A DNA stretch of 64,000 nt from Marsupella aquatica. Taxonomy: Eukaryota; Plantae; Marchantiophyta. Shown here one piece after another: positions 1 through 49,243 of this stretch. The stretch covers positions 7,774,963-7,838,962 of the forward strand of contig OZ316893.1 in assembly GCA_973895155.1 (NCBI GenBank). The letters run 5' to 3'. Below the pieces are notes generated by a model. That model did no database searches. It was not told the DNA's origin and was given only the letters and a program-made list of their open reading frames with translations. A program made the translations under genes and the position numbers. The stretch's first letter is position 1, and the number at the start of each line of letters is the position of its first letter.

Positions 1-1
1 C

Positions 2-1447
2 CTGTCGGCATCCCATACATAGCTGAGCTGGTTGTCCATCACCCTGTTTGCGTGCATTCGGGCATTCTCTAGCAAAATGGCCAGGTTGACCACAATTATA
101 GCACGCCGCAAATCTTTGCACATTCGGCCTAGGAGGTACTGACGGGTTCTGAATAATCCGAGGATACATCTCTCCTGGATTGTTCCTTAACCCTGACCAC
201 AGAGATGCAGGTCTGTTGGATAGGTCTCGTGCTCCAGTCTCACTGATGCCAAAAACACTATCAGCGGCATCTCCCAAAAAGTACTCTACTTCTCCCTGAC
301 ATGGTCTGATCTCGGCCACATGCCGAACATGATTAGTATTAAGCTTAGGACACGCATCTTTATGGTGTCCGGTTTTATAACATAAGGCACACCATACAGA
401 GCTATCCTCCTGTACTACCTTCTTCTTTGGTTTTACCTCTGCAATGATAGCCTTAAGTTGCTCGGTAAGGGCTACGATGTTATCTGGTGGCTTAGCCTCC
501 ATCTTGACTTTCGTCTTCCCTCTCCTTCTGCCCTTCCTTTTCCTAGTTTTTTCTTCTTCAGAACTAGAAGATGACTCACTCTTGCTACTCCCACTATCCG
601 AGCTTGACTTATCACTTCTAGACTTCTTGGGATGTTTCTTCTTCTTATCTTTTTTCTTATGGGGTGATCCCTCCTTTGATGAGGAACTCTCAGACTTAAG
701 CTGTTTCTTCCGGCTTGTGATATCTGCATTAATGTATAATTGAATATCCTTAATTGCTTCGGCTAAAGTCTCCGGGTTCTCCTTCCTAATTGCAAAACTC
801 ATCTTCTGTGGCAAAGCATTCACCAACCATTGAAGTTGCATACCTTCAGATGCATTGGTCTTTGTACGTCTTACCAGTTTCTGAAAGCGTTGCAAGAACT
901 TCCTGAAGGATTTGTTCTCCTTGAACCGAAGTTGTCCCAACTTCAGCACTGCTAGTTCTGAAGTTCCAATGGGTCGAAACTCCTTAACAAAGAGTGTTTT
1001 GAAGATATCCCAAATGGCTTGATCTTCCACATCTAATGCTCTGTACCAAGGCCTAGCCTCACCCTTGAACAGGCCGGGAAGAATCTGCATCTTGATGGCC
1101 GATTCTCCATTTGCTGCAGCGGTTCCCTCGAAATCATCCAACCATTCGTCCGGATCCTCATCTCCTCTCCCATGAAATGCCTTGTAATGTATGCGCGACC
1201 GCTGGCTCAATCTGGTCCCTGGCCTCTCGTCTGGCCGTGCCTCTGGTTCCCCCATGTCGGTTGGAGACTCACTTCTCCTTACCGACTCTTCTTCTGGTAT
1301 GTCTTCTTCGACGCCACTTCCAGTTTCGGAGCTACTAGCTCTTTCTGCCCCTCTCAGTCGCTGTGTATCATGCCACCCGGCGAGCTGCTGCAGTCGAGCT
1401 CTCTCCTGTTGAATCACTCTTTCTTCCCTCGGTGTAAGGTCAGTCAT
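2..1447 (-). CDS. gag: Gag polyprotein, N-terminal ~480 aa, open to the window edge
   Basis: Manual translation from ATG 1447 gives MTDLTPREE...FHGRGDEDPDEWLDDFE...LFKGEARPWY...WDIFKTLFVKEF (retrotransposon capsid-like), a Ser/Lys-rich linker, and CCHC knuckles CALCYKTGHHKDAC and CYNCGQPGHFAREC. A third knuckle appears to start (CMGCRQ) at the edge. Absent from the ORF track because there is no stop in the window. Confidence 0.92.
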   Translation of the reverse strand, partial: MTDLTPREERVIQQERARLQQLAGWHDTQRLRGAERASSSETGSGVEEDIPEEESVRRSESPTDMGEPEARPDERPGTRLSQRSRIHYKAFHGRGDEDPDEWLDDFEGTAAANGESAIKMQILPGLFKGEARPWYRALDVEDQAIWDIFKTLFVKEFRPIGTSELAVLKLGQLRFKENKSFRKFLQRFQKLVRRTKTNASEGMQLQWLVNALPQKMSFAIRKENPETLAEAIKDIQLYINADITSRKKQLKSESSSSKEGSPHKKKDKKKKHPKKSRSDKSSSDSGSSKSESSSSSEEEKTRKRKGRRRGKTKVKMEAKPPDNIVALTEQLKAIIAEVKPKKKVVQEDSSVWCALCYKTGHHKDACPKLNTNHVRHVAEIRPCQGEVEYFLGDAADSVFGISETGARDLSNRPASLWSGLRNNPGEMYPRIIQNPSVPPRPNVQRFAACYNCGQPGHFARECPNARKQGDGQPAQLCMGCRQ

Positions 1448-1494
1448 TACCTACGCTTCCGTTCTAACTTCATATCTCACGGCTTAAGAAATGC

Positions 1495-1512
1495 CCCCTC
1501 CATCTAGCGCCA
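1495..1512 (-). promoter_or_regulatory. Primer-binding site (TGGCGCTAGATGGAGGGG)
   Basis: Begins with TGG, 4 nt (TTTT) after the LTR-terminal CA, and lies upstream of gag. Cognate primer not identified. Confidence 0.75.
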
Positions 1513-1516
1513 AAAA

Positions 1517-4500
1517 TGTGGTGCGTCCCATGGCTCCCTAAACCCAAGAAACCCCCCAGCTCAAGCCGATTCCCGCAGGTTTCGTGCTTGGCGAGGCCGT
1601 TTCCGCGGCTTAGCGGCATGGGACGCTGCTAACCTTCTACTACTACTATTAACATTTTACACACATATACTGGACAGATCCTTCATCGGGTCATGAGATA
1701 CGTAGTCGGCCTAATCTAGGTCTTCCCCTGTCTTCCCCTCCGTCTTGTTAGGTATGTTTGGATTCCGCCGCCGGAATGATCCCCAATAGGCTTGGTTAAG
1801 CCGCTAAGACCTCTCTCAGCTCGACACATCCAACTCTCACTCCCCTGCTTACTTTCCTTCCTTCTGTTGATGTGGGCACTCTTCACACAAGTTAATGCGA
1901 CACACAAATAGCAAAATGACTCATTCTGACTGAGTCATACCATGCACTTGCCATACAAACAGTACATCTCATACACAAGTTCTGCGAACTAAGCCGTGAG
2001 GCCAACTCTATTCAGCTCTTAGGCATGAGGAAACATGAATATACACAAGGGTCACTGTATGACTAACCGAGAGCTTCTCGTACTACTTGATCCCAGCCCG
2101 GCTGGTGCAAACTAAAAACTTGCTAAAGAAGAGGCCCTGAGCTCCCCGCTGCCCAGGTACTTATCCTGGTAGTGGATCCGCCATTCTTTGCATCGTAAGC
2201 CTAATCTACTTAACAGTAATCTACTTGCCCGAATCTACCTATGTACAGCAAGGCAGGAGCACAAGTGTTGCTCCTACCAGTGGGACCGCAATCCCACTAA
2301 GCTAAGTGTCAGGGCCGCTCCTGGTTCTGATCCTAATCCTAAACGTGGAGATCCGCGCCCGCCCTGCCCACTCACGCCTCCTCCCTCCACGTCCGCCCTC
2401 CCTAAAAGGAACGGCGCCCTTGCACCGTCACGACACCGGTGGTGGATCCTTAATGGACGCCCCCAACGCTTCCTCCTCAGCCACTGCCGTAGGTTCATTC
2501 TCTGACAGATTACCTGCCCTTGACTGAGTCAACTCTCCATCGGCCTGACTGGGTCCACCCCCGGCAATGGCATCGGCTTCAACATCAGCCTCAGCTACAG
2601 CCTCAGCATCGGCCACGGCCTCGGCAATACCCACGGTCCACCTTCGGCTTCAGCCTCGACACCGGCCTCGGCAATACCCACGGCTTCGGCCTTAGCCACT
2701 CCCTCGGCTTCGGCCTCCCCTTCCCCTAGGGTAGTTGGATCCCTAGCCGTGACCCTGTCTGGGGTCGGTGCTGGGTCTACCTCCTTGATCACCACGGCCT
2801 GTGAAGTCGTATTACTCCTTGACCCTGAAGGTTTCCGCTTCTTCTTCGTTGGTGGCTCGGCAGCTGGTCCCTTCCCCTTCCCACTTACTTCCGGCACTGG
2901 TGCAGGTGGCGCGGCTTGTCCTTCGGCAATTACCACCCCTGGTAACTAGTTTGTCCCAACGGGAGATGGACCTGCTGCAGCTAAGCATTTAAATACTGCG
3001 GCTTGTTTCTTCAGCCGCTCTGTTTGGTTGTCGGCCCGCCGCTGTAGGTTCTCCATCTTCCTCGTGATTTCCTCCAACTCCTCTTGGGTTTCATCCAGGT
3101 CCTTACGTGCCCCCTCCAGCTCATTTTTGGCCTCCTCCTGCTCCCTGTGGGCTTCCTCCAATTCCTTCTTCAAGGTAGCCCTCTCCTCCTGGGTTGCTCT
3201 TAGCTCCTTGTCGAGCTCTGCAATGATGACAGACTCCATCTGGTTCATCTTGGCGTAAGTCTGTTCGAGCATCTCGTCCTTCTCCCTTAGGTCGGCCTTG
3301 AAGCTGGCCGTCAGGGACGCAAGCTCCTGCTGCAGTGCCATAATCCCTTGATAGGATTTCCCTAACTCGACCTCCTTCTGCTCAAGGGCTCCGCGGATTT
3401 TCTCGAGCTCCCCTTTCAACGCCCATTCCTTTCTTTGGGTCTCCGCCATGGCCCGGCTGTTGGCTGTTATGTGGGCCTCCTCTGTATTCTTCAGCTCTTG
3501 CTTCCACTTCTCCCTCTCTTTGATCGTGTCGGCCAACTCTCCCTGCGTCTGAGTTAGTTTATCCTTGATATTCTGATTATCAGCCTGCGCGGTGTCCAAC
3601 TGCCCCTGCATGATGTTCAGCTCATGTCATTTAATCCGCAGTTCATCTTGGGCTTTCTTGGCCGCCCCTAGATCTTCAATCTCGGCTTCCATCCTCCTAA
3701 GCCGCCGAATGACCTCGTCCTTCTTGCTTCTCTCTAAAGCCACCGCTTCTTCTAATTGGTGCTTCTCCAACTGCTCCCTATGGAAAAAGGGTCCTACCTC
3801 CAACTCCTCTCCAAAGATGCCGAGCGCAAGTTCCCCACACATCTCACCATACTCCATGGCTCTATTCTTAGCGTAGGTGGAGTAAGTAGAAGTGATCGGC
3901 ATCGCCCATCATGGCCTCTGCTCCCAAGCCGTCCTGCGGATCTCTTCAATCGTGGCTAGAGGTTTGCTTCCTTTTTCGGCTAGCCGCCTGATGTCCTCCG
4001 GCCAATCTCCTCCTGGTAAATCCTTTTCCTTAGCCAGGGCGGCCTTCTCCTCCTGCTTGATTCGCTCCTGAAATTCCTGCACCGTCTGTTTTATGCCGTC
4101 GAAGCTCGGGGGAGCAACATCTGGTGGGGGAGACTCAGGGCTACTCTGCTGGTTGGGGTCCCCTCGCACTACCCTTGGAAGTGTGGGGACAAACCGGCCA
4201 CAGGTCCTTACTCCTGGAACGTGATGGTCCGACCCATAGCCGGAATTATCATGGCTGCAGTCCTCCATTGCCTCCTCTACCTCTTGGACGTCCGGCTTCT
4301 CCCTCTCCTCTTCGTCGGTAGGAGCTTTAGGCAATTCTGCCTCAGATTCGGAGCTTGAGGTTCCCACGTACATTCGAACACCTGGCTTGGATTCCGGCCT
4401 GATTCTCTCCTTGTCTCCAGCAAAGGGGTTTTCTCTTGTGAGCCGGTGTAGGCCTACCTCTGTAGTAGTGTCCTGCATTGTTGCCATTGCCGTTGTTGTT

Positions 4501-6225
4501 GCCGATGCCGATTTCTTTTCTTTCTCCAGTAGTTTCAGCAGACTCTGCATGCCTGGTTGCTGCATCGGCAAGTCTTCCTTCCTGGGCCTAAACACCTGCT
4601 CGATCGTAGGACTAACAGGTGGTTGAGGCTTCTCAGCCAACGGCCTCGGCGTTGGAGCTTCCTCGGGTGCCCTTACCTGCAGGGGAAGTACCGGGGCAAA
4701 AGTCTGACCTCTGGCATACCGGCACAACAGCGGCATGTGATAGCCAAGCCGCGACACGCTCCCCATGCCGATTACCTGCTGCTCCTCCTTTAAGATCTTC
4801 TTCAATTGGTTGAGGAGGTACCCGTTGTAGTCCCGGCTTGGGTCTGGCCTTTCTGCCAGATAGACCTGTGCCTTGCCGATCTCTGCCCTCGGCAAGTTAC
4901 AATGCATGGTCACCCGCAAGAAGTCGATCATCTCTCCTATGTGCGGGTTGGTGCAGGTGTTCCGGAAGAAGCCATTCTTCGTTGATGGCCCGGGGAACGA
5001 CCGGAACTCCTTGTCAGGCAAGGTCTTCCTGGTATCAACTTTGGTCTTATTGCCTATCGGCAAGCCAAACACTTCGGCAATTACCTTGGGAGTAAGATAG
5101 AAATCCTTCCCATATATCCTCGTGCAATTGGTCTCGGGTTCCCATGACCCCACGAATTCTAATAGGTCTGACTCCGGTACCTCCGGCTTCAGCCATGGTA
5201 ATCTTACAAAGGCCTCTAAGCCGGATCCGGCCATGAAGCCTTGGTACTTCTTGGTCTGCATGGCCGTAAAGCATGCATCCTCCTCCCGTGCAAAATGTAG
5301 TTGCACCTCCACCGGTAGGGTTGCCGCCCAGCCCTTCCAGGTGTCATCCCTGGTTGGAATGGCCTTGATGGGATCGACCTCCTCCTCTTCGGCTTCTCCC
5401 TGCCTCCTGCTCTGCTGCTCGGCTGGCCTCTTTGGTGCCGCCGACCTCGTTCTTTTTGCCGGGGTGGCTTCATCGTTGACGGCCCCCTTCCTCTTCATCT
5501 CTGCTGCCGTGGAGGTTTCTCCTAGCACCGTTGCCTGGGTCCACCTTTCCGTGCTACCCTTTAATTCCCAGTGTATGTCGTTGCAATTCTTGATGGCCTC
5601 TCGGATGCCGACAACGCTGTCTTTGCAAAACAGAAGATCGTCGAGTTGATTGGAAGTAGGCGTCCACAGGAACTCGTCCTTGATGAGTTCGCCTCCTAAG
5701 AAAGCCGTCTTCTGCAGCTCCCACAATCGAGCGAGCTCCTGCCGTTCTCGAGCTGCCCTTTCTGACTCCTCGTCCTCGTAAGTCTTGATGTACTCAGTTG
5801 CCCGTTCGAACAGGCATCCCCAGAAATGTGCCGCTTGATTGACGTTGCTCATACCCTCCTTAGGTCGATCGTCGGTATCTATTCTCTCCCCGAGTGCTTG
5901 CCTAAGCAGCTGACAGTAGTTGGCCTCCCGTAGTCGTCTGCCTAGTTCGTGCTCGCAAATGAGCCACCATCTCCTGCAAGCGCTCCTTACCCCTCTCCTC
6001 TGCCGGTCCTTCTTCCCATTGATCCTTCCTAGCCACCGACGCTTAACGCGCCCTAACCCTAATCGGGTTTTCACCCTCAGCCTTACCTCCGGCCTCTGCC
6101 CGGGTTCCATGGTTGCCCCTAATTGTTTATATTTTCCTTGTTTTGTCCCTATACTAAGGTGTTCCTAGGGTGCCTTCCTGCTTTACCCACTTAACCGGCT
6201 GAGTGATTCCTGTCTAGGCATCACA
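1517..6225 (-). repeat. 5' LTR, 4709 bp (family A)
   Basis: TG...CA ends; aligns end to end, in inverted orientation, with 44578-49243; followed by PBS and gag. Confidence 0.93.
2428..6110 (-). pseudogene. LTR-encoded ~1200-aa protein (plant-transposon accessory domain + long coiled coil), disrupted copy
   Basis: ORF pieces 6110-3909, 3902-3627, 3611-2946 and 2936-2595 share one frame, with a frameshift to 2634-2428. The stops correspond to sense codons in the 44693-48322 copy. Confidence 0.88.
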
Positions 6226-8327
6226 CTATAGTTCCCCGCGGGAAGGTCTTTAGGTAGAGTTTGGACTGAACAGCTTGCCAACGGGCTCGAAAATTATGAA
6301 TAAGAAATGTCTTCATTGTACCTAGTACGTGCAGCTTGAAATCAGGAAGAGAAGTTCTTCGATGCACCATCCGCAAGCGCTTTACCTTCTGTTGTGCGCT
6401 TTCAGCAGTCCCTTTTTTCTTTTCTCTCTTGTTCTGTGTCTTCTCATCTAGCTCCACGTATTGAAAGGTTTCCCAATCAATATAAGGTGTCTCTATGATG
6501 TCCATCTCCATTTCACACCATGACAACTTGTGAACTCCACATCTCTCACACTGACCAAAAATACAACTCTTCCGGTGCCATTCCTGACCCTCAAGCTTAG
6601 GACAAACTGCTCCTTCCATCCATTCTCGTACTGAAGTAATGGATGTCTTAGAGGCAATACAACTGCGACCCTCTAAAGAAGCATTGGGTGATCTACATAT
6701 GGAACACTCACAATTACAATCCTTTTGGTGCTGGTGTCTCCTGAACTTGTTGAGTGCCTCTTTCAACAGGTCCATTTCAACATGTTGTTTGCAGCAACAA
6801 ACCATTCTATCCTTCATAGTGCGGATATAGTATGGCTTTAATTGTTGAAAAGATCTGAGACCTATAGAAATGCCATTCCCCTCCACGGTGCACCAATTTT
6901 CGAATTTCATGAAGAGCTCAACCTGCAAGACACGCAATATGAAATCAGGATCCATTCGCCAGGGGGTAAGGTTCAGCTTACTCATAGAAACTTTGTCATG
7001 CACTTCAGAGAATACGAGTTCAACACGATCATACTATTAGCAAAAAATAATTATTTACCTCAGTATCCTCAAGCCAATGCTTGGAATGCTTCTCGTACTG
7101 CTTCAAACCTAGGCGTAGTTTGGCCACATCCTTCTTGCAAGGAGAAATTCGAGTATTGCTCTCCCAGTATTGTTCCACAATCTTTCGCACCTCAATAGAA
7201 ATCTTGTCACTCCTAACCTTTCGGTCACCGGTAGGATATCTCAATGCTGCATCCTGATCAAGCTGTTTCCTCATTGCACCTGCTTTGTGGATGTTTTGAC
7301 GTTTGACACCCAAAGTTGTGGCCAATGAGGTCTGGTATCTACTCCCTACTATGGACTCTCCTACCAGCGATATCAAGAGCGCTCTCTTCATGGCTAGATG
7401 ATCTTTGCGTCTAGCTGATTTCACAATTTTTAGAGATTTAACAAGGTCAATCACGGCAGACCCTACAGATGCATCTAGCCTTGCACACCCAAGCGCTGCA
7501 GGCTGGTATTGTCTCAAAGCACTATGCAACCAAAATCTCTCCATAACTAGCTTTCTAGCAGCCACATTAAGGTCTTTCATTCGACTCATTAAAACCCTAA
7601 TGAAATTGGAAACTAATCTATTGATGCACTGTCACTTCCGGTTTGGGATAGGATCACCGTGGTCACTACATACCCCCGTTCTCTTCATGCGGGTGCAAGA
7701 TTGGTGCTCCTCTTGGTATTGAGCTCGTTTCCTTGCTGCGTCTCTTCTCCGAAATGCTACAGCCTTGTCCAAATCATGAACTTGAAACTCTGGCTCATCA
7801 ATAGACACTGCGAGTTGCGCATTCAATGCTTGGAGACGTGCTTCCCTTCTGCCTATGGTTGCATTCAAAACACAGACTCTTTCCTTGCCTTTAGCAACTT
7901 CCTCTTGCAAGTTTGAAAGCATGGTGTGTAACAACGGAGCAACCTCACTCTGTGCTTGGGCAGCGATTTCTCGTATGTCATCCATAGCAGCCATCTTTAG
8001 CGCCTCGCATTGTTGATTCACACCACGAAGCAATTGCTGCCCTTCTTGCTCTGCCTCAGTGAGCATGTTTTCACATTGTAACTCCGCATCCGCAAGCATA
8101 TCCGAACCTTGTTGCTCCGCATCTGCAAGAATGTCATTACAGTGCTGCTCTGCATCCGCAAGAACCTCGTTCTCCCAATTGCACTGAGTGGTTGCATCTT
8201 TTTTCTTCCTCTCAGACTGATCGTAGTATTTCTGACGCCTTCTTTGGTTACGAGCCTCTCTCTTTATCCTTTCAAGTGCATCTTCTACGTTACTAAGAAT
8301 CACCATCTCTCGTTGATGAATTTGCAA
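6226..8327 (-). pseudogene. Sola2-like DDE transposase gene (N-terminal coiled coil, Cys-rich region), truncated by the LTR insertion
   Basis: Motifs IGLRSFQQLKPYYI...CCCKQH, CIFGQCERCG, W-E-T-F and FLIHNFRARWQ...PRGTIV. These normally precede the DFxENY catalytic motif, which is cut off by the LTR at 6225. GT-AG intron at about 7058-6924 joins EDTE to VELF. Homologous to 55391-56704. Confidence 0.6.
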
Positions 8328-20700: not shown

Positions 20701-23168
20701 GTTTCAGTCATTATTAATTTGTAAGGAAGTGCTTAGAAGTAGGGATGAAGTAAGGGGGTAACAATTCAAAAAGTCCCACTTTTCATCACACAATTCATTG
20801 GTTGCCACATGTCAATAAATGATTGGTGGGTTTTGTGACCTTCCTATTCCTTTTTGAGAGAGTGATTAAATCAAACATGCATGTTTGCAGATGCATGTAT
20901 AACAAGTTCAGCGATCCTAAGGTGAACTTGGGAGGTAGCTAGGTAGGTACCAATTGTCTCAGTCCCTTAACAATAGAACTTATAAAGCGCCAACTACAAG
21001 GTAGATCGAGTGAAACCTCTTAATTAAACTGGAACTCCATGGCTCATCATGTGGATGAGAAAACTCATGACCAGTATGTCAAATAATAAGCATGTATGCC
21101 ATTTGTCATGATTTATACGTACTATCCTTTATTCATGTTTGTGCAAAGAACAGGTAATGAAGGCTAGCTAGTATGATATGTCAATGGAAGGGTAATTTAA
21201 GGATTAATAATCCGTAATCTAAGGATTTTGAAGGTTGACCATCATTAACAAGTGTGACACTATATAAGAAGTGATCGAGAGTAAATACATGCCATTCTAT
21301 ATTCAAGTAAGTTAGATTACTTTTGGTGACAAGCAAATAGACTCTAAATTGATGTGTGTAACTTAACATTTTACAACTGAAGCTCAATTACATTTCAAAC
21401 TTTATTAAAGTTTGACGAATTGAAAAGCGGATTATGTACGTATTTATAAAATCAAAGTAGAATCCCTCAGCCCTCCCTCTTTTGCTACATTAAGTGAACC
21501 CCCTGAGAACAAACCCCCCCCCCCCCCATGTATATCGTTTGATGCATTAAAAATGCCTTGTTATGCATGTAAAAACATTACTTATCCTATCACATTAGAT
21601 CCTTTTGTAAATTAGTACTAGAAAATTATTGTTCTTCCTGTGTTAATTTGTCTAAAACTCTGGTAGCTTATAGACTTCATGAAGGTAAACAAACTAGTAC
21701 TAAAATGAATTAACAAAGGGAATATTAGGCTACACTATATCCCTAGAGGAATATTCCATAGTCTACATTACTTATTTAAACTTCAATATATTGCGCCATT
21801 ACTCTATCTTCATTTAAGAAGGGGGTATCAACCAATGACCTATTTTCAAATGGTACATTGGGGGTCCTTAACCCCAAAACAAATTGACATGAGCACGTAA
21901 GATTGAGGCAGCAGGGTATTTCAGGGTCACACAATAATTAGTATGTGTGACACTAATCTTGTGACATTTGAGATGGCTGATGTCGTGGCCAGCCCCTATA
22001 ACCAGCTGGTATGCATTTGGTGAACTGGAATGCCATTAAAAAGCTTGGATGACAATTCTATTTACATAGACCATATTGTAAGAAAGGATGGGTCGGATAC
22101 AAAATAAATAAAGACCTAGACAGGGCCCAACAACAATTTCAATGTCCCAACAATAATAAAAAACATGCACTTTGAACCAAAAATGTCAATAAACTCCCGG
22201 AGTAAGCTGCCCAAGAAAGAAAACCATACACATGAACTTCAAATTTGAATAGCATAAGCATGAATTCAACATGGTGAGTGACTGCCTTAGAGGGATTAGA
22301 GGCAGTGGCCCCAGGCTTGCAGGGTCAACGATAAGGTTTCCCACCTAGCACATTCGCTCACATGCAACAAGGACGTTTGAATGCTTTCCCGGAGTCATGA
22401 ATGCCGTGGGCCCCACCTAATTATGCACAGTATTCAACATAATAATGAACTTCTCCAATCGTCCTTCCGACAATCCCAACGCGCACATCCACCTCCTGAG
22501 GAATTCTGAATCGACTTCGTTGCAATATTTTGTACACAGGAACGGCAGTGTGCACCATGACGCCGGAACCGAAGGAACGATGCACCTGTCAGTACAAATG
22601 TTCGCGCTTACGGGATGGGTATGATTTTGTGAGCCCAAGGAATCGAAGACGACATGCAAACTATGACAAGACAGGCAGGGTCATTCCTGCAAAGTTTTTA
22701 GTGGACCGTGGGCATCCGGATGGCCATGGCCTATCGCATCAACACTAGAAGAAAACAGGGCCCTTTATGACCAATCACCCAATGACGGAGATGAATAAAT
22801 GACCAAAATTTTTAATGACACAAAAAGAATGACAGGGGAATGACTGTCCACAATGACCAATGGACTGAAATGACAAAATGTTAACTTTTGCATCATTTTG
22901 TATAATGTCTGTAATGACTGATGTGACCAAAATGACCCAATTTCCCTAAATGGTCAATTTAGACACATGTCTTAAATGACGCAATTAATAACAACAATGA
23001 TAAATCAATGTTTAACAACATTATAGTCACTCTGGACAATGATTGAAATGACCAAAAATCTATTTGAGTCATTTTGGACAACGGTGATAAATGACAAAAA
23101 ATGTATTACCGTCATTTTAACCAACGGTGTTAAATGACAAAATATAGGGTCAATCTGAAAATGAGAAT

Positions 23169-23575
23169 ATATCAATGTTTACAACAACATATTGTCATTA
23201 TGGACTTCTCCCATAAATGACTAACTCTAGGGTCAATCTTGAAATTAGGACATATCAGTGTTTACAAGAACATACCGTCATTATGGACTTCTCTCATAAA
23301 TGACTAACTCTAGGGTCAATCTTGAAATTAGGACATATCAGTGTTTACAAGAACATACCGTCATTATGGACTTCTCTCATAAATGACTAACTCTAGAGTC
23401 AAACTTGAAATTAGGATATATCGGTGTTTACAACAATATACTGTCATTATGGACTTGTTGCATAAATGACTAAATATATGGTCAATCTAAAAATCATGAT
23501 ATATCAATATTTACAATAACATATAGTCATTATGGACTTATTGCATAAATGACTACTTATAGAGTCATTAAAGAA
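23169..23575 (+). repeat. Tandem repeat, 83 bp x ~5, in the CACTA subterminal region
   Basis: ATATCAGTGTTTACAAGAACATACCGTCATTATGGAC... recurs at 23169, 23252, 23335, 23418 and 23501. Confidence 0.9.
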
Positions 23576-23654
23576 CCCAAGAGATATGAAGATTAAAATA
23601 CTCAATAGTCATTCCAGACACCGGTCATAATTGTAGAGTCATTGATATAGTTGA

Positions 23655-26600
23655 TAACCCTTCCACTAAGTGCGGGACACAATACTCATCATTGTCCTCC
23701 CACTGGTTGGGGCATTAGCAATTTGAACACATGTCTTGCATTTACTTTAGGCATGACGCACCTAGCTTTGGGGAAATCACTCCCAAGTCATACACCTTTG
23801 GAGTGATTTTCCATAAGTGTCACCATATATAGATGCGCGCATACTACCGTATCCAAAGGCAAATGAAACCTTTTTGTCTCTCCAAGAAGTAGGGCAAGAC
23901 CAATGGAAGGTTGTCATCCTTTGTTGTAATTGTGTCATGTTTGTGCCGGTGTTTGGATGGGGAATATTTTAATTTGCAAATAAATAGTGATGGGGCATTC
24001 AAGGAGCTAGTGTAATCTTTATTGGGTCATTTCTAAAAACATTTGCATTACAAATACCAATGACTACAAGTAGGGTCATTAAATTTGTCATATGGACTGT
24101 CATATAAGTCAAGTGACTGGACTTGTGGTTATTTGTGTGGTCCCTCATGCAGTCATTAAACACAAGCACAAATGACCAGTTTGGGGCTGGGGGCTTGAGG
24201 TGGGCCCTAGAGTGCCATGGGGCCCCACATAGAGGTGAGAACCCCTCCACTAGGTGCGGGACACTATACTCATCATTGTCCAACCACTAGTTGCGACATA
24301 AACACTTTGGACACATGTTTTTGCGCTTACTTCAGGCATGATGCACCTTTGGGGAAATCACTCCCAAGTCGTATGACTTCGGAGTGATTTGTCAAAAGTG
24401 TCACCATGTATGCATACCATCACATCCAAAGGCAAATAAAAGTTGTTTTTTGGTTCTCCAAGAGGTAGTGCTACACCAATGGAATGGGCAGGGGAGTCGT
24501 GCTTCTCAGTATGGTGTGGGTGCGGGATTAGGGTATAGGAATATTCCAATCTTGCAAGGAATCTAAAGCTGGCTCTAGTTGGAGGTACTAGGGCCTTTAT
24601 TGGGTCATATGTGAGCAATGGCCCGTCATAAATGCCAATGACTAAAAGTAGGGTCATTAAAACTGTCATATGGAGAGTCATATCAGTCTAATGATTGGAT
24701 TTGTGGTCATTTGAGGGGTCCCTTATGCAGTCATTAAAAGGAAAAGCACAAATGACCAGTTTGGGGCTAGGGGCTTGAGGTGGGCCCTAGAGTGCCATGG
24801 GGCCCCACATAGAGGTGAACCCCTCCACTAGGTGCGGGACACTATACTCATCATTGTCCAATCACTAGTTGTGACATAAACACTTTGGACACATGTTTTT
24901 GCGTTTACTTCAGGCATGATGCACCTTTGGGGAAATCACTCCCAAGTCGTACGACTTTGGAGTGATTTGCCAAAAGTTCAACCATGGATGTATACCATCA
25001 CATCCAAAGGCAAATAAAACATATTTTTGGTTCTCCAAGAGGTAGTGCTGCACCAATGGAATGGGCAGGGGAGTCCTACTTCTCTGCATGGTGTGGGTGC
25101 GGGATTAGGGTATAGGAATATTCCAACCTTGCAAGGAATCTAAAGCTGGCTCTCTTTGGAGGTACTAGGGCCTTTATTGGGTCATATGTGAGCAATGGCC
25201 CGTCATAAATGCCAATGACTAAAAGTAGGGTCATTAAAAATGTCATATGGAGAGTCATATCAGTCAAATGACTGGATATGTGGTCATTTTAGGGGTCCCT
25301 CATGCAGTCATTAAGGAAAAGCACAAATGACCAGTTTGGGGCTAGGGGCTTGAGGTGGGCCCTAGAGTGCCATGGGGCCCCACATAGAGGTGAGAACCCC
25401 TCCACTGGGTGCGGGACACTATATTCATCATTGTCCAACCACTAGTTGCGACATAAACACTTTGGACACATGTTTTTGCGTTTACTTGAGGCATGATGCA
25501 CCTTTGGGGAAATCACTCCCAAGTCGTATGACTTCGGAGTGATTTGCCAAAAGTGCAACCATGGATGTATACCATCACATCCAAAGGCAAATAAAACCTG
25601 TTTTTTGGTTCTCCAAGAGGTAGTGTTGCACCAATGGAATGGGCAGGGGAGTGGTGCTTCTCCGCATGGTGTGGGTGTGGGATTAGGGTATAGGAATATT
25701 CCAACCTTGCAAGGAATCTAAAGTTGGCTCTCTTTGGAGGTACTAGGGCCTTTATTGGTTCATATGTGAGCAATTGCCCGTCATAAATGCCAATTACTAC
25801 AACAAAGGTCATTAAAATGGTCACATTGGATGTCATATAAGCGGAATGACCTGAATTATTGTCATTTGAGGGGTCCCTCATGCAGTCATTAAGGAAAAGC
25901 ACAAATGACCATTTTGGGGCTAGGGGTTGGAGGTGGGCCCTAGAGTGCCATGGGGCCCCACATAGAGGTGAGAACCCCTCCACTAGGTGCGGGACACTAT
26001 ACTCATCATTGTCCAACCACTAGTTGCGACATAAACACTTTGGACACATGTTTTTGTGTTTACTTAAGGCATGATGCACCTTTGGGGTTTAGGGTTGTTT
26101 TGTGGTTCTCCAAGAGGTGGTGCTGCACCAATGGAATGGGCAGGGGAGTCGTGCTTCCCTATATGGTGTGGGTGCGGGTTTAGGAAAGAGGAATATTCCA
26201 ACCTTGCAAGGAATCTATTGGGGGCTCTCTTTGGAGGTACTAGGCGGGGTACTAGGGCCTTCATTGGGTCATTTGTGAACAATGACATGTCATAAATACC
26301 AATGATTACAAATAGGGTTGACCATTGAAACCGTCATATGGAATGTCATATAAGTCAAATGACGGGATTTGTTGTTATTTGAGGGGGTCCTTTGTGGAGT
26401 CATTGAAGACAAACATAAATGACCAGTTTGAGGCTAGGTGCTGGAGGTGGGCTCTAGAGTGCCATGTGGCCCCACATGGGGCTGGAAACCCCTCTACTAG
26501 GTGCGGGATATTATATTTACTATTCTTCAACCATTAGTTGCACCATAATTAATGTTGAATCATATTTTTGCATTTACCTAAGGCATGATGAAACTTTGGG

Positions 26601-28420
26601 GAAATCACTCCCAAGTCATACGGCTTTAGAGTGATTTGCCAAAAGTCTCACCATGTGAAATAATAGTTGTTTTCTTGTTCTCCAAGAGGTAGGGCAAAAC
26701 TAGGGGAAGGTTGTTGTCCTTCTATTTAACTGTGTCATATCTATGCCAGTGTTTGGGTGGGGAATATTCTATTCCATTGCAAAGGAAATGCGAGGGGGCA
26801 CTCCAACAGGTAGTGTAATCTTCACTAGGTCATATTGGAGTAATGGTGTTCATTAAAGCCAATGACAATAGTAAGGGTCATTTTGGCAGTCATATTGCAG
26901 GTCATTTGGACCAAATGACTGCATATGTGGTCATTATAGAGGTCCCTCATAGTGTCATTATGGACCAACATAAATGACCAGTTTGGTGCTAAGGATTGGA
27001 AGTGGGCCCTAGACTGCCATGGGGCCTTGCATGAAGGTGGCAACCTCTCCACTAGGTGCGGGACACTATAATCATCATTGTCCAACCACTAGTTGTGCCA
27101 TGAACACTTTGGAGCCATCTTTTTGCGTTTACTTAAAGCATGATAGAACCTTGGGGAAATCACTCCCAAGTCATACAGATTTGGAGTGATTTGCCAAAAG
27201 TGTCACCGTGGTTGAATACCATCATTATCAATGGCAAATTGAGCCTTTTGTTTTGTCTCTCCAAGAAGTAAAGCAATGTCACCAATCAATGGAAGATTGT
27301 TGTCCTTCTATGTAAGTGTGTGATTTTTGTGTTGATGTTTTGATGGGGATACTCCATTTTGCATATGAATAGTGTCGGGGCATTGTGAGTAGGTGTTGTA
27401 ATCTTCATTGGGTAATTTTGGAGTAATGTTGTGTCATTAGTGCCAATGACTGCACTAAGGGTCATTTTGGGAGTCATTTTGGATGTCATTTGTACAAAAT
27501 GACTGCATATGAGGTCATTAGACAGGTCCCTCATGATGTCATTATGTACCAGTAGAAATGACCCTTTTAGGTCTAGGAACTTTGGGTGGGCCCCAATGTG
27601 CCATGAGGCCCGCCATGGGGCCCTACATGAAGGTGGTAACCCCTCCACTAGGTGCGGGACACTATACTCATCATTGTCCAACCACTAGTTGTTAGTTACA
27701 TGAACATTTTGGACACATGTTTTCACGTTTACTTAAGGCATGATGCAACCTTGGGGAAATCATTCCCAAGTCGTACAACTTTGAGGTGATTTGCCAAAAG
27801 TGTCACCAGGGATTAATACCATCATTTGCAAAGGCAAATCGAGCCATTTTTTTTCTCTCTCCAAGAGGTAGCGCAACACCAATGGAAGGTTGTGGTCCTT
27901 CTATTTAACTATGGCATGTTTGTGATTGTGTTTGGATGGGGGATATGATATTTTGGGGATATTTTGCAAATAAATTGTGACGGGGCACTCTAGGAGGTAG
28001 TGTAATCTTTATTAGGTCATTTTGGAACAAAGTTGTGTCATAAATGCCAATGACTACAAATAGGGTCATTGAAACGGTCATATAGGATGTCATATAGGTC
28101 AAATGACCAGACTTGTGGTCATTACATTGGTCCCTTGTGGAGTCATTTAATTAGAAGAAGCTCAAATGACAAGGTTTGAGCTAGGGGCTGGAGGCGGGCC
28201 CCTAGAGTCATAAATGTGGTACTACATAGAGCTGGGAACCTGCCTCCGGGTGCAGTACACTCTACTGTATACTATTCTCCATCCATTAGTTGTGGCATAA
28301 ACCTGCACTTTGGGATATGGGGGTTCTCTTTTTGGAGGTACTTGTGCTTCATTGGGCCATTTGTGAACAATTCTACGTCAGAAATGTCAAATAATGACCT
28401 CCTATAATGTCATTGTGATT
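23655..28420 (+). repeat. Tandem array of ~510-600-bp units (~8.5 copies) with an internal hairpin
   Basis: Anchor ACCCCTCCACTAGGTGCGGGACACTATACTCATCATTGTCC at about 23657, 24241, 24818, 25396, 25975, 26488, 27044, 27638 and 28238 (last copy degenerate). Confidence 0.92.
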
Positions 28421-44298: not shown

Positions 44299-44478
44299 CG
44301 ACGAGGAAGGGGACAATGGCTCACAAGAGGACGAGGAAGGGGAGGCTGGCTCAGAAGAGGACAAGGACGGGGACAGTGGCTCACAGGAGGACGAGGAAGG
44401 GGATGACGGATCACGAGAGGACGAGGAAGGAGAAGATGGCTCACGAGAGGACGAGGAAGGGGATGGTGCGTCTGACGG
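44299..44478 (+). repeat. Coding tandem repeat, 30 bp x6 (DEEGDxGSxE)
   Basis: GACGAGGAAGGGGA...GGCTCAC..GAG units, visible in both DNA and translation. Confidence 0.9.
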
Positions 44479-44577
44479 TGAGGGGCAGCCATCGGAGGTT
44501 GCGCCCCAATTCTCCAGGGATAAACAGAAATGTCCTCAGGGTGAGCACAAATCGCCGCCCTTTGTGCCAGAGTGCAT

Positions 44578-47500
44578 TGTGATGCCTAGCCAGGAATCAC
44601 TCGGCCAGTTAAGTAGGTAAAGCAGGAGTGCACCCTAGAAACACCTTAGTATAGGGACAAAACAAGGAAAATATAAACAATTAGGGGCGACTATGGAACC
44701 CGGGCCGAGGCCGGAGGTAAGGACGCTGGGGGTGAAAACAAGATTAGGGTTAGGGCGCGCTAAGCATCGGCGGCTAGGAAGGATCAACGGGAGGAAGAAC
44801 CGGAAGAGGAGAGGGGTAAGGAGCGCTTGCAGGGAATGGTGGCTCATTTGCGAGCACGAACTAGGCAGACGACTACGGAAGGCCAACTACTGTCAGCTGC
44901 TTAGGCAAGCACTCAGGGAGAGAGTAGATACCGACGATCGACCTAAGGAGGGTATGAGCAACGTCAATCAAGCGGCACATTTCTGGGGATGCCTGTTCGA
45001 ATGGGCAACTGAGTACATCAAGACTTACGAGGACAAAGAATCAAAAAGGGCAGCTCGAGAACGGCAGGAGCTCGCTCGATTGTGGGAGCTGCAGAAGACG
45101 GCTTTCTTAGGAGGCGAACTCATCAAGGCTGAGTTCTTGTGGACTCCTACTTCCAATCAGCTCGACGATCTTCTGTTTTGCGAAGATAGAGTTGTCGGCA
45201 TCCGAGAAGCCATCAAACGCTGCAACAACATACACTGGGAGTTGAAGGGTAGCACGGAGGGGTGGACAAAGGCAACCGTGCTAGGAGAGACATCCACGGG
45301 AGCCGAAATGAAGAGGAAGGGAGCCGTCAACGATGAAGCCACCCCGGCAAAAAGAACGAGGTCGACGGCACCAAAGAAGCCAGACGAGCAGCAGAGCAGG
45401 AGGCAGGGAGAAGCCGAAGAGGAGGACGATCCCATCAATGCCATTCCAACCAGGGATGACACCTGGAAGGGCTGGGCGGCAACCCTACCAGAGGAGGTGC
45501 AACTACATTTTGCACGGGAGGAGGATGCATGCTTTACGGCCATGCAGACCAAGAAGTACCAAGGCTTCATGGCCGGATCCGGCTTAGAGGCCTTTGTAAG
45601 ATTACCATGGCTGAAGCCGGAGGTGCCGGATTCAGACTTATTGGAATTTGTGGGGTCATGGGAACCCGAGACCAATTCCACGAGGATATATGGGAAGGAT
45701 TTCTATCTTACTCCCAAGGTGATTGCCGAAGTGTTTGGCTTGCCGATAGGCAATAAGACCAAAGTTGATACCAGGAAGACCTTGCCTGACAAGGAGTTCC
45801 GGTCGTTCCCCGGGCCATCAACGAAGAATGGCTTCTTCCGGAACACCTGCACCAACCCGCACATAGGAGAGATGATCGACTTCTTGCGGGTGACCATGCA
45901 TTGTAACTTGCCGAGGGCAGAGATCGGCAAGGCACAGGTCTATCTGGCAGAGAGGCCAGACCCAAGCCGGGACTACAACGGGTACCTCCTCAACCAAGTG
46001 AAGAAGATCTTAAAGGAGGAGCAGTAGGTAATCGGCATGGGGAGCGTGTCGCGGCTTGGCTATCACATGCCGCTGTTGTGCCGGTATGCCAGAGGTCAGA
46101 CCTTTGCCCCAGTACTTCCCCTGCAGGTAAGGACACCCGAGGAAGCTCCAGCACCAAGGCCGGTAGCAGAGAAGCCTCAACCACCTGTTAGCCCTACGAT
46201 TGAGTAGGTGTTTAGGCCAAGGAAGGAAGACTTGCCGATGCAGCAACCAAGCATGCAGAATCTGCTGAAAATGCTGGAGAAGGAAAAGACGGCACTGGCA
46301 CCAGCTTCGGCAGTGGCACCAATACAGGACATTGCCCCAGAGGTCAACCTAAGCAGACTTAGAAGGGAAGACCCCTTTACCGAAAATAAGGAGAGAATCA
46401 GGCCAGAATCCAAGCCGGGTGTTCGAATGTACGTGGGAGTCTCAAGCTTTGAATCTGAGGCAAAATTGCCTGAAGCTCCTACCGGCGAAGACGAGAGGGA
46501 GAAGCCGGAAGTCCAAGGGTTGGAGGAGGCAATGGAGGACTGCAGCCATGATAACTCCGGCTATGGGTTGGACCATCACGTTCCAGGAGTAAGGACTTGT
46601 GGCCGGTTTATCCCCACACTTCCAAGGGTAGTTCGAGGGGACCCCAACCAGCAGAGTAGCCCCGAGTCTCCCCCACCAGATGTTGCTCCCCCGAGCTTTG
46701 ACGGCATAAAGCAGACGGCATAGGAATTCCAGGAGCGACTTAGGGAAGCAGAAAAGGCAGCCCTGGCTAGGGAAAAGGATTTGCCAAGAGGAGATTGGCC
46801 GGAGGACATCAGGCGGCTAGCCGAAAAAGGAAGCAAACCTCTAGCCACGATTGAAGAGATCCGCAAGACGGCTTGGGAGCAGAGGCCGCGATGGGCGATG
46901 CCGATCACTTCTACTTACTCCACCTACGCTAAGAATAGAGCCATGGAGTATGGTGAGATATGTGGGGAACTTGCGCTCGGCATCTTTGGGGAGGAGTTGG
47001 AGGTAGGACCCTTTTTCCATAGGGAGCAGTTGGAGAAGCACCAATTAGAAGAAGCGGTGGCTTTAGAGAGAAGCAAGAAGGACGAGGTCATCTGGCGGCT
47101 TAGGAGGATGGAAGCCGAGATTGAAGATCTAAGGGCGGCCAAGAAAGCCCAAGATGAACTGCGGATTAAGCGGCATGAACTGAACATCATGCAGGGGCAG
47201 TTGGACACCGCGCAGGCTGATAATCAGATTATCAAGGATAAACTGACTCAGACCCAGGAAGAATTGGCCGACGCAATCAAGGACAGGGAGAAATGGAAGA
47301 AGGAGCTGAGAGACGCAGAGGAGGCCCATATAGCAGTCAACAACCGGGTCGCGGCGGAGACTCAGAGAAGGGAGAGGGCGCTGAAGGGAGAGCTCGAGAT
47401 CATCCGCCGAGCCCTTGAGCAGAAGGAGGCCGAGTTAGGGAAATTCTATCAAGGGATTGTTGCGCTACAGCAGGAGCTTGCGTCCCTGACGGCCAGCTTC

Positions 47501-49243
47501 AAGGCTGACCTGCGGGAGAAGGACGCCCAGCTCGACCAGACTTATGCCAAGATGAATAACATGGAGTCTGAGGTCGTAGCGGAGCTCGACAAGGAGCTAA
47601 GAGCAGCCCAGGAGGAGAGGGCTACCACCAAGAAGGAATTGGAGGAAGCCCACAGGGAATTGGAGGAAGCCAAAAACGAGCTGGAGGAGGCACGTAAGGA
47701 CCTGGATGAGACCCAGGAGGAGTTGGAAGAAATCACGAGGAAGATGGAGAACCTACAGCGGCGGGCCGACAACCAAATAGAGCGGCTGAAGAAACAAGCC
47801 GCAATATTTAAATGCTTAGCTGCATCAGGTCCATCTCCAGTTGGGGAAAACCAGTTACCCGGGGTGGTAATTGCCGAAGGACCAGCCGTGACACACGGCC
47901 CGGTGCCGGACGTTGGCGGCAAGGGGAAGGAACCGGCTATGGAGATAGTGAAGAAGAAGAAGCGGAAACCTTCGGGGTCCGGAGGTTATTCGACCCCTCA
48001 AGCCGTACTCAAACCGGTACCAACCTCCGGCATGAACACGGCAATAGATTCCGCTACCACCAAAGGTGGGGATGGCGCGACCCAAGCCGAACTACTCAGT
48101 AATGAGGCCGGTATCCCAGATCCACCTCTTGAGCAAGCCGGGGAGGCCGTGGCCGATGCTGAGGCTGTAGCTGAGGCTGATGTTGAAGCCGATGCCATTG
48201 CCGGGGGTGGACCCAGTCAGGCCGATGGAGAGTTGACTCAGTCAAGGGCAGGTAATCTGTCAGAGAACGAACCTACGGCAATGGCTGAGGTGGAAGCGTT
48301 GGGGGCGTCCACTGAGGAATAGCCACCGCTGCCATGACGGTGGTGGAGGGCCACTCCTTTCAAGGAGGGCGGACGTGGAGGGAGGAGGCGTGAGTGGGCA
48401 GGGCGGGCTCAGATCTCTAAGTTTAGGATTAGGATCAGGACCAGGAGGCGGCCCTGACACTTAGCTTAGTGGGATTGCGGTTCCACTGGTAAGAGCAACA
48501 CTTGTACTCCTGCCTCGCTGTACATAGGTAGATCCAGTTAGGTAGATTAGGCTTACGCTGCAAAGAATTAGGCGGATCCACTACCAGGATAAGTACCTGG
48601 GCAGCAGGGAGCTCAGGGCCTCTTCTTTAGCAAGTTTTTAGTTTGCACCAGCCGGGCTGGGATCAAGTAGTAAGAGAAGCTCTCGGTTAGTCATACAGTG
48701 ACCCTTGTGTATATTCATGTTACCTCATGCCTAAGAGCTGAATAGAGTTGGCCTCACGGCTTAGTTCGCAGAGCTTGTGTATGAGATGTACTGTTTGTAT
48801 GGCAAGTGCATGGTATGACTCAGTCAGAAGGAGTCATTTTGCTATTTGTGTGTCGCATTAACTTGTGTGAAGAGTGCCCACATCAACCAATAGAGGAAGG
48901 AAAGTAAGCAGGGGAGTGAGAGTTGGATGTGTCGAGCTGAGAGAGGTCTTAGCGGCTTAACCAAGCCTATTGGGGATCATTCCGGCGGCGGAATCGAAAC
49001 ATACCTAACAAGACGGAGGGGAAGACAAGGGAAGGCCTAGATTAGGCCGGCTACGTATCTCATGACCCGATGAAGGATCTGTCCAGTATATGTGTGTAAA
49101 ATGTTAATAGTAGTAGTAGAAGGAGGTTAGCAGCGTCCCATGCCGCTAAGCCGCGGAAACGGCCTCACCAAGCGCGAAACCTGTGGGAATCGGCTTGCGC
49201 TGGGGGGGTTTCTTGGGTTTAGGGAGCCATGGGATGCACCACA
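44578..49243 (+). mobile_element. Solo LTR, 4666 bp (family A), TSD TGCAT
   Basis: TGCAT|TGTGATGCC...GCACCACA|TGCAT; homologous to 1517-6225; no PBS follows; excision restores ...PPFVPEC-MRVLSQHIRAL... in frame. Confidence 0.96.
44693..48322 (+). pseudogene. LTR-encoded 1209-codon frame with three TAG stops
   Basis: ORFs 44693-46027, 46208-46723 and 46781-48322 are in one frame; each TAG is CAG in the other LTR copy; ATG lies 115 nt inside the LTR. Confidence 0.92.

Follow-up and report, generated by a model that had tools for sequence, protein, structure and literature searches.

A formerly selected reading frame, possibly a self-contained accessory gene, fills most of a liverwort Ty3/Gypsy retrotransposon's long terminal repeat

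Results

Two copies of a 4.7-kb long terminal repeat

We analysed a stretch of 64,000 nucleotides (nt) from the liverwort Marsupella aquatica (assembly GCA_973895155.1, contig OZ316893.1, positions 7,774,963 to 7,838,962 of the forward strand; henceforth the window), which holds two copies of a 4.7-kb long terminal repeat (LTR) of a retrotransposon, about three quarters of it occupied by a single sense reading frame (Table 1). Repeats were detected by self-BLAST of the whole window, which returned one long repeat pair (1516-6225 against 49244-44578; 90.3% identity over 4,729 alignment columns). Both copies start with TGTGATGCC and end with CACCACA. Copy A is the 5' LTR of an element that continues into a primer-binding site (PBS) and gag (henceforth element A), while copy B is flanked by a 5-bp target-site duplication (TSD), a length within the 4-6 bp range of LTR retrotransposons. 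Copy B splits an acidic open reading frame (ORF) whose two flanks lie in one frame, with the insert plus one TSD amounting to 4,671 bp. A search of copy B for internal direct repeats at E<=1 gave none save two pairs of 18-23 bp at chance level, and we could thus rule out that it is a small element with short LTRs of its own. Because the two copies have the same two ends, and copy B has TGCAT on both sides and no internal terminal repeat, we read the 4.7-kb unit as an LTR and copy B as a solo LTR.

Table 1 Features of the two LTR copies and of element A. Positions are those of the window; nt, nucleotide of the LTR; aa, amino-acid residue counted from the ATG at nt 116; NLS, nuclear localisation signal.
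Feature	Position	Strand	Remarks
Copy A, 5' LTR, TG..CA, 4,709 bp	1517..6225	-	followed by PBS and gag
Copy B, solo LTR, 4,666 bp	44578..49243	+	TSD TGCAT at 44573-44577 and 49244-49248
Target-site half to the left of element A, CTATA on +	6226..6230	.	from sequence; partner beyond the window
PBS, TGGCGCTAG-type, 4 nt past copy A	1495..1512	-	
gag, Ty3/Gypsy type, CCHC knuckle	2..1447	-	ATG at 1447; runs past the window edge
Candidate promoter TATAAA (nt 95-100), sole one in the LTR	6126..6131	-	in both copies
Unconstrained open codons 1-86 from the nt-116 ATG	5853..6110	-	likely 5' leader, or basic low-constraint extension
Copy A of the LTR gene, with nt 374 as likely start ATG	2428..5852	-	stops at 3909-3911, 3627-3629, 2946-2948
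24-bp repeat array with frameshift, copy A	2616-2717	-	
Copy B of the LTR gene, 1,122 codons counted from likely start	44954..48322	+	stops at 46025-46027, 46205-46207, 46721-46723
Conserved N-terminal domain, aa 87-200	5511..5852	-	dN/dS 0.15
Most conserved domain, aa ~250-475	4686..5363	-	dN/dS 0.12 for aa 256-480; Transposase_32/ATHILA-ORF1-like by language-model features
Coiled-coil-like segment, aa ~800-1045	2976..3713	-	dN/dS 0.25
NLS-like KKKRK, aa 1089	2832..2846	-	both copies, ahead of acidic tail; on motif basis alone
Candidate poly(A) signal region, T-rich, four TGTA motifs past the stop	1950..2050	-	copy A nt 4181-4269; copy B nt 4131-4219

The gag frame of element A stays open for 482 codons up to the window edge, beyond which pol would lie, and matches Retrotrans_gag (PF03732; E 5e-10, 40 bits against a cutoff of 24.1) and zf-CCHC (E 7e-9) in Pfam, together with a Ty3_capsid match below cutoff. 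Element A thus carries a predicted Ty3-type gag, and by the Gag criterion it is Ty3/Gypsy. Its PBS is not of the tRNA-Met type; it may be tRNA-Asn-like, and the window contains no tRNA genes for comparison.

Separately, we noted that the terminal ~100 nt of the LTR (window 1517-1620, minus strand) are predicted, by minimum-energy and centroid structures alike, to form a long hairpin, and that the 3' 934 nt of the LTR fold somewhat better than shuffled sequences (z -2.4, 20 shuffles).

A long frame formerly under purifying selection

Counted from the ATG at LTR nt 116, the frame of copy A contains 3 stops in 1,170 codons (aa 734, 828 and 1055) before a frameshift in the 24-bp repeat array near its end, and that of copy B, from the equivalent ATG at 44693 (TATAAA at 44672), contains 3 stops in 1,209 codons (aa 445, 505 and 677) and terminates at 48322. 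In a second-order Markov control (200 shuffles), the best 1,170-codon stretch in any frame had at least 21 stops (median 31). None of the six stops is common to the two copies, and the four indels that separate them upstream of the repeat array measure 3, 3, 3 and 12 nt. All six stops lie at CG or CHG cytosines, five of them explained by a single difference, so we read them as post-insertion decay of methylated copies; the pattern suggests that copies A and B were methylated and decayed after they had inserted. With three private stops each, both window copies of the gene are dead.

Comparison of copies A and B over 1,073 aligned codons gave dN 0.055, dS 0.181 and dN/dS 0.30 (bootstrap 95% confidence interval 0.23-0.39), with 79, 52 and 123 differences at the first, second and third codon positions, respectively. 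The other two sense frames had dN/dS of 0.82 and 1.32, and the antisense frames 0.83, 1.29 and 0.40, where 0.40 presumably belongs to the frame whose codon boundaries coincide with those of the sense frame. We also simulated a neutral null by re-placing the 251 substitutions within their base and methylation context, which yielded a mean dN/dS of 0.67 and a minimum of 0.46 in 500 runs. Since the observed value lies beneath all 500 neutral simulations, the LTR frame was formerly under purifying selection.

These results bear on a sequence-only reading of the same window, which had described a 4.7-kb LTR consisting mostly of one protein-coding gene. The limits that it drew for the LTR are upheld by the TG..CA ends, the neighbouring PBS and gag and the TSD-flanked solo copy, and the long single sense frame that it saw stands out clearly from the shuffles. 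Its argument that the ancestral ORF was intact, as the stops differ between copies, agrees with the absence of any common stop. It had named two outcomes that would speak against it, a 3' LTR of full elements without the ORF and a dN/dS of about 1 across copies with no intact copy or transcript. Neither was encountered, and between copies A and B the ratio departs from neutrality.

Synonymous divergence between the two copies is patchy: two segments have values of 0.03-0.06, while others reach 0.30 (9/151 against 37/150, p 5e-6), a pattern that suggests recombination between subfamilies or constraint at the nucleotide level.

Probable start and candidate 3' end of the gene

The first 100 nt of the LTR are A-rich and CpG-poor, and the TATAWA motif at nt 95 is the only one in either copy, with none in the last 0.9 kb. 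Such a motif is expected by chance ~0.3 times per LTR and ~0.008 times within the first 130 nt, the latter being a post hoc figure calculated after the site had been seen. Transcription typically starts 25-35 nt downstream of a TATA box. A start at that distance from the nt-95 motif would fall after the ATG at nt 116, so that the next in-frame ATG, at nt 374, becomes the likely start. The substitution pattern changes at the same point: non-synonymous changes outnumber synonymous ones by 13 to 3 in codons 1-86 (dN/dS 1.39), as compared with 11 to 17 in codons 87-200 (Fisher p 0.011; p 0.035 against the entire remainder of the frame). One homolog, P0011, has its initial methionine three residues ahead of its match to aa 91. 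Translation thus probably began at the nt-374 ATG, for a predicted protein of ~1,120 aa. The sequence-only reading, which put a gene of ~1,200 aa at nt 116, is therefore right about a large LTR gene, while its length probably includes an unconstrained 5' leader of ~86 codons.

Past the stop codon lies a T-rich region (31-36% T, against mostly 7-29% elsewhere in copy B) with TGTA motifs, features that resemble plant poly(A) regions. On all of these features together, we lean slightly towards a self-contained LTR gene of ~1,120 codons with a candidate promoter of its own inside the LTR. The position of the TATA motif allows a very long R region just as well as an ORF in U3.

Two AGGTAAG sites resembling splice donors are kept in both copies (6088 and 4678 on the minus strand; 44715 and 46125 on the plus strand), one just past the candidate start region and the other at the end of the conserved domain; they could give spliced gag or short isoforms.

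The predicted protein and its relatives

The LTR protein combines a basic N-terminus (net charge +16 over aa 1-100), two conserved domains, a linker with 12-13% proline and a coiled-coil-like segment, of which aa 801-1000 in copy B are proline-free and consist to 67-71% of E, K, Q, R, A and L. The Pfam matches of this segment to ATG16 and HMMR_N are both below threshold, and no part of the protein has an above-cutoff Pfam match. Because the protein has no transmembrane helix (highest 19-residue Kyte-Doolittle means 1.0 and 0.9), we rejected a role as Env.

A phmmer search with the LTR protein found 21 matches at E<=0.001, mostly to the second domain; one of them, P0017 (a repeat protein of 2,214 aa), was discarded as spurious. 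The N-terminal domain is matched by P0009, P0011 and P0013 (blastp E 1e-14 to 1e-17), which together with P0010 are left out of alignment A1. Close homologs are mostly short fragments; homologs at 35-48% identity span both conserved domains, and two named homologs (25-26% identity) come from the liverwort Calypogeia fissa. In the ESM Atlas, the nearest named clusters are Transposase_32 (0.90, 149/256 shared features) and ATHILA (0.88), with 8 of the 10 best named matches from one family or clan; nothing usable was obtained there for aa 45-205.

Searching 347 frames of the window with a profile built from the relatives only recovered both LTR copies and one further ORF at 37770-38852 (+; E 9e-6), while a reversed-frame control gave 0 matches. 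That ORF neighbours a Transposase_21 (CACTA) frame at 36004-36846, and its pairwise match to the LTR protein is weak (blastp E 0.045). By the profile match, the conserved domain is common to the two proteins and so serves two transposon classes. The same ORF also points to exchange of this domain between DNA transposons and retrotransposons.

Other searches gave little. The best hit of a sequence search against the PDB had E 0.24. Foldseek against PDB and BFVD gave no match at E<=0.001 and VIA-align a best Z of 4.2, both with a model of pLDDT 57 that makes them uninformative on the fold. Word-index protein searches, which are weak negatives, returned 0 of 7,998 candidates for aa 40-480, 0 of 531 for gag against longer proteins and 0 of 4,478 for alignment A1 against proteins of 1,303-3,720 aa, and two metagenome scans had 0 confirmed loci among 49 and 103 pattern matches.

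Family copies in public sequencing runs

The stretch or part of it is present in 12 of the 14 public runs listed (9 studies, several organism labels); no RNA run is on record among the 14, which is not evidence on expression. We compared four runs (X1, X2, X4 and X6) with window positions 1-7000 by summed contig depth, a quantity that is not copy number. Depth was high over gag and the LTR, and the family is multi-copy in all four. In X1 and X2 it dropped by a factor of ~100 or more directly beyond the LTR start, where the flank in X4 and X6 is itself a repeat. Median depth over the ORF exceeded that over gag 2.95-, 2.86- and 2.44-fold, and 7.33-fold in the low-depth fourth run, and was 0.66-1.49 times that of the non-coding LTR across the four; the ratio of ORF to gag fits two LTRs per element plus solo LTRs.

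Variant evidence comes from 40 of 699 rows, which leave copy A's third stop outside; at its other two stops, 91-100% of the depth reads another letter in each of the four runs. Among 12 of 18 indel rows, none lies between 2502 and 6225. Furthermore, a contig of X6, from a relative, covers 5956-6225 and then runs into the complement of the purine tract AAGGGGGAT, with 8 purines 1 nt from the LTR start, which fits what is expected of a matching 3' LTR. Three contigs of X4 at the LTR start have other, mixed flanks. The gene is thus very probably present in both LTRs of the element; that the ORF occurs twice per element had been proposed from the sequence, and it gains support from the solo copy, the 2.4-7.3x depth of ORF over gag and the purine-tract contig.

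The flank to the left of element A (window 6319-7000) is repeated in the compared runs, which makes it probable that element A sits inside another repeat.

Other features of the window

The flanks of the low-complexity acidic ORF interrupted by the solo LTR lie at 44027-44577 and 49249-50173 (+), and downstream of it is an SNF2-type helicase frame (50549-51217; Pfam E 3e-36). The two are possibly one gene, which is possibly transposon-borne, as the CACTA transposase lies upstream. The window also contains, at 23131-28490, tandem repeats of 83 bp, after which comes a degenerate array with units of roughly 580 bp. Two further Pfam matches are sub-threshold: a C-terminal piece of an integrase (53970-54995, minus strand; E 0.018) and NSD-like PHD fingers (62797-63426, plus strand; best E 3e-4).

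Discussion

We propose that the LTR of this Ty3/Gypsy element holds a self-contained gene for a predicted nuclear accessory protein of ~1,120 aa that keeps its own family transcribed, and we give this reading a probability of about 0.5. The anti-silencing or trans-activating role in it is drawn by analogy and is tentative, with odds slightly below even. The gene would run from a TATA box at about nt 95 through a start at about nt 374 and a stop at about nt 3745 to a poly(A)-like region at about nt 4130-4300. Judging from motifs and selection, the TATA box would drive an mRNA of ~4.2 kb ending at the LTR's own poly(A) site. A promoter and a 3' end inside the LTR would imply either an R region of 4.2 kb or two promoters, i.e., genomic RNA would either be a read-through product, with R being very long, or start at a second promoter, without a TATA box, within the final 0.9 kb. 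As expected from the way LTRs replicate, reverse transcription would copy the gene into both LTRs, and LTR-LTR recombination would leave it behind in solo LTRs.

At the protein level, the conserved domain would bind nucleic acid, the coiled coil would oligomerise, and the whole, bound to the element's own DNA or chromatin, may act like VANC or plant-mobile-domain (PMD) anti-silencing factors. VANC and the PMD of MAIL1 reportedly have similar structures and counteract silencing (bioRxiv 10.1101/2024.04.02.587720; 10.1101/2024.09.27.615353; here and below, what we say of cited papers refers to parts of their text), and in Marchantia 40% of transposons were reported to bear H3K27me3 (bioRxiv 10.1101/2022.10.21.513199). 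Recruitment of Polycomb via a telobox was considered and not relied on: the LTR has TTAGGG-type motifs but no exact telobox.

Several observations weigh against this proposal. Neither window copy of the gene is intact, and the solo copy is disrupted from codon 445, within the most conserved domain. Both copies have an open frame between nt 62 and nt 374, with a conserved ATG at nt 116 and a single, in-frame indel, so the nt-116 ATG may be the true start. The link to Transposase_32 and ATHILA is borderline, as 149 shared features fall short of the 170 typical for true members, and Pfam at E<=1 gave no Transposase_32, ATHILA or PMD match in the 17 members of the alignment (the query and 16 relatives). 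Given this, and since PMD and DUF1985 are absent among the Atlas matches listed, the connection to VANC and PMD proteins is one of analogy rather than demonstrated homology. AlphaFold models of the protein are poor (pLDDT 57 and 50). The purine-tract join is seen in one contig of one of the four runs; it reaches codon 51, short of the nt-374 ATG, and GATC-GATC junctions suggest a Hi-C library, so that just ~16 nt past the LTR are trustworthy.

The arrangement of the LTR could also be explained by a layout like that of sag in mouse mammary tumour virus (MMTV), in which a promoterless ORF with its start at nt 116 would lie in a long U3 and be translated solely from the 3' LTR, via an upstream promoter or a spliced genomic transcript, leaving 5' and solo LTRs silent. 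The first ATG is conserved, comes after just 115 nt of the LTR and is followed by an open frame in both copies, retroviral LTR ORFs such as sag and nef lie in the 5' third of the LTR (PMC2664473), and the solo copy has decayed, all of which would suit such a layout. Yet the sole TATAAA is found at nt 95 rather than in the last 0.9 kb, and codons 1-86, which would be translated, are unconstrained; we consider this layout rather unlikely. A similarly modest likelihood applies to a structural or targeting role in place of anti-silencing, with the protein serving in RNA export or as an RNA chaperone, as a particle scaffold, or as a tether of the integration complex to chromatin. The long coiled-coil-like segment and the basic N-terminus would be in keeping with this, and help in the nuclear steps of retrotransposition has been suggested for extra ORFs that carry SMC-like or Transposase_28 domains (PMC7264820). 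However, the conserved domain also appears, by a weak match, beside a CACTA DNA transposase, and since CACTA elements have no RNA particle stage, this favours a DNA or chromatin role in both classes. The sag-like layout and the structural role are not mutually exclusive.

Two further alternatives question the LTR or the gene itself, and both are far less probable. The 4.7-kb unit might not be one LTR but a short LTR plus a 5' extra ORF like those of Ogre or Retrosat2 (ORF0), or else a mobile unit of its own ahead of the PBS; 5' extra ORFs between LTR and gag are indeed known (Retrosat2 ORF0, PMC3485330; the eORF-5'F columns in the supplement of PMC6317226), and element A's own 3' LTR lies beyond the window. 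This is very improbable in view of the PBS, which comes after the ORF and immediately adjoins the unit's end, and of copy B, which has the same ends, a 5-bp TSD, flanks in one frame once one TSD is discounted and no internal terminal repeat; in a relative, moreover, the purine tract abuts the start of the unit. Alternatively, the frame may be a captured gene fragment borne neutrally in the LTR, as broken window copies and mostly fragmentary close homologs could suggest. That idea, the least probable of all, is already largely refuted by the dN/dS of 0.30 under all neutral simulations, by the two examined stops being private among many copies and by the homologs at 35-48% identity that span both conserved domains.

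The location of the selected gene within the LTR would double it in each element and leave it in solo LTRs. Solo-LTR formation is the host's main route for deleting retrotransposons. We can imagine, as an improbable extension, that the LTR is a complete gene with a U3 of ~125 nt and an R of ~4.2 kb, such that every intact LTR, solo ones included, could supply a VANC-like protein in trans; solo-LTR formation would then multiply a counter-defence gene instead of removing it. The claim of the sequence-only reading that solo LTRs become dispersed gene cassettes survives in part: the solo LTR retains the ORF, and the layout, with a TATA-like box ahead of the ORF and a poly(A)-like region past it, would permit cassette function, but the one solo copy of the window is broken. 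With gene, candidate promoter and likely target in one 4.7-kb unit, the system offers a direct test of what the extra ORFs of plant retrotransposons do, and it bears on how long R or U3 may be in reverse transcription. There is also a consequence for annotation, as solo LTRs of such elements could be called host genes.

Comparison with known systems

Our literature search found no plant precedent for an LTR-borne accessory gene; most subscription papers and the per-element and eORF-domain files of PMC6317226 were outside its coverage. None is described in the parts covered of PMC13468544, PMC10508981, PMC12885004, PMC7466625 and PMC1560396, the last of which reports a maize host gene nested in one element. 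Outside plants, ORFs within LTRs are on record for MMTV (sag), lentiviruses (nef) and HML elements (PMC2664473). These share with our element a protein-coding frame in the LTR that is duplicated at both ends, but they belong to vertebrate retroviruses and the MMTV LTR measures 1.3 kb, whereas the plant LTR described here has 4.7 kb, an ORF of more than 1,100 codons and a candidate promoter ahead of it; no sequence relation between them was found.

Among plant elements, the Cassandra terminal-repeat retrotransposons in miniature (bioRxiv 10.1101/2023.07.14.548913) likewise have gene-derived sequence and a promoter in their LTRs, but this sequence is 5S RNA-related and non-coding and the element is tiny and non-autonomous. 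VANC of VANDAL and the PMD proteins MAIN and MAIL1 resemble the LTR protein in the functional model alone (a transposon-borne nuclear factor acting against silencing); they are proteins of DNA transposons or hosts in flowering plants. Rice Retrosat2/FRetro3 with ORF0 (PMC3485330) and Ogre (PMC6431247) are similar in that they combine LTRs exceeding 3 kb (1.9-6.5 kb in Ogre) with many solo LTRs and have an extra ORF upstream of gag-pol. In the parts covered of these two papers, however, ORF0 of Retrosat2 lies upstream of gag-pol and the extra ORFs of Ogre are internal; they are not placed in the LTR.

A close resemblance is also seen to Athila/Tat (OTA) elements, whose extra ORFs carry ATHILA ORF1 (PF03078), Transposase_32 (PF20167), Transposase_28 or plant mobile domains (Neumann 2019, PMC6317226; Vicient and Casacuberta 2020, PMC7264820; sunflower Athila 14, PMC11728184). 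tRNA-Asn primers are reported for 12% of Athila, 15% of TatII and 4% of Retand elements (PMC6317226), and the liverwort Tat lineages Z1 and Z2 are reported to be without aRH (PMC10508981; PMC13468544). Our element resembles this group in its Ty3/Gypsy gag, non-Met PBS, 5-bp TSD and very long LTR, as well as in a large extra ORF that encodes an NLS-like motif and a domain probably related to theirs. In the parts covered of the papers on Athila/Tat, by contrast, these ORFs are internal, located either 5' of gag or in the interval from pol to the 3' LTR, each element has one, and the long LTRs are regarded as non-coding, whereas here the ORF lies within the LTR, upstream of the PBS, and is retained in a solo LTR. 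A selected gene of more than 1,100 codons that fills three quarters of an LTR represents a third position for the extra ORFs of plant retrotransposons.

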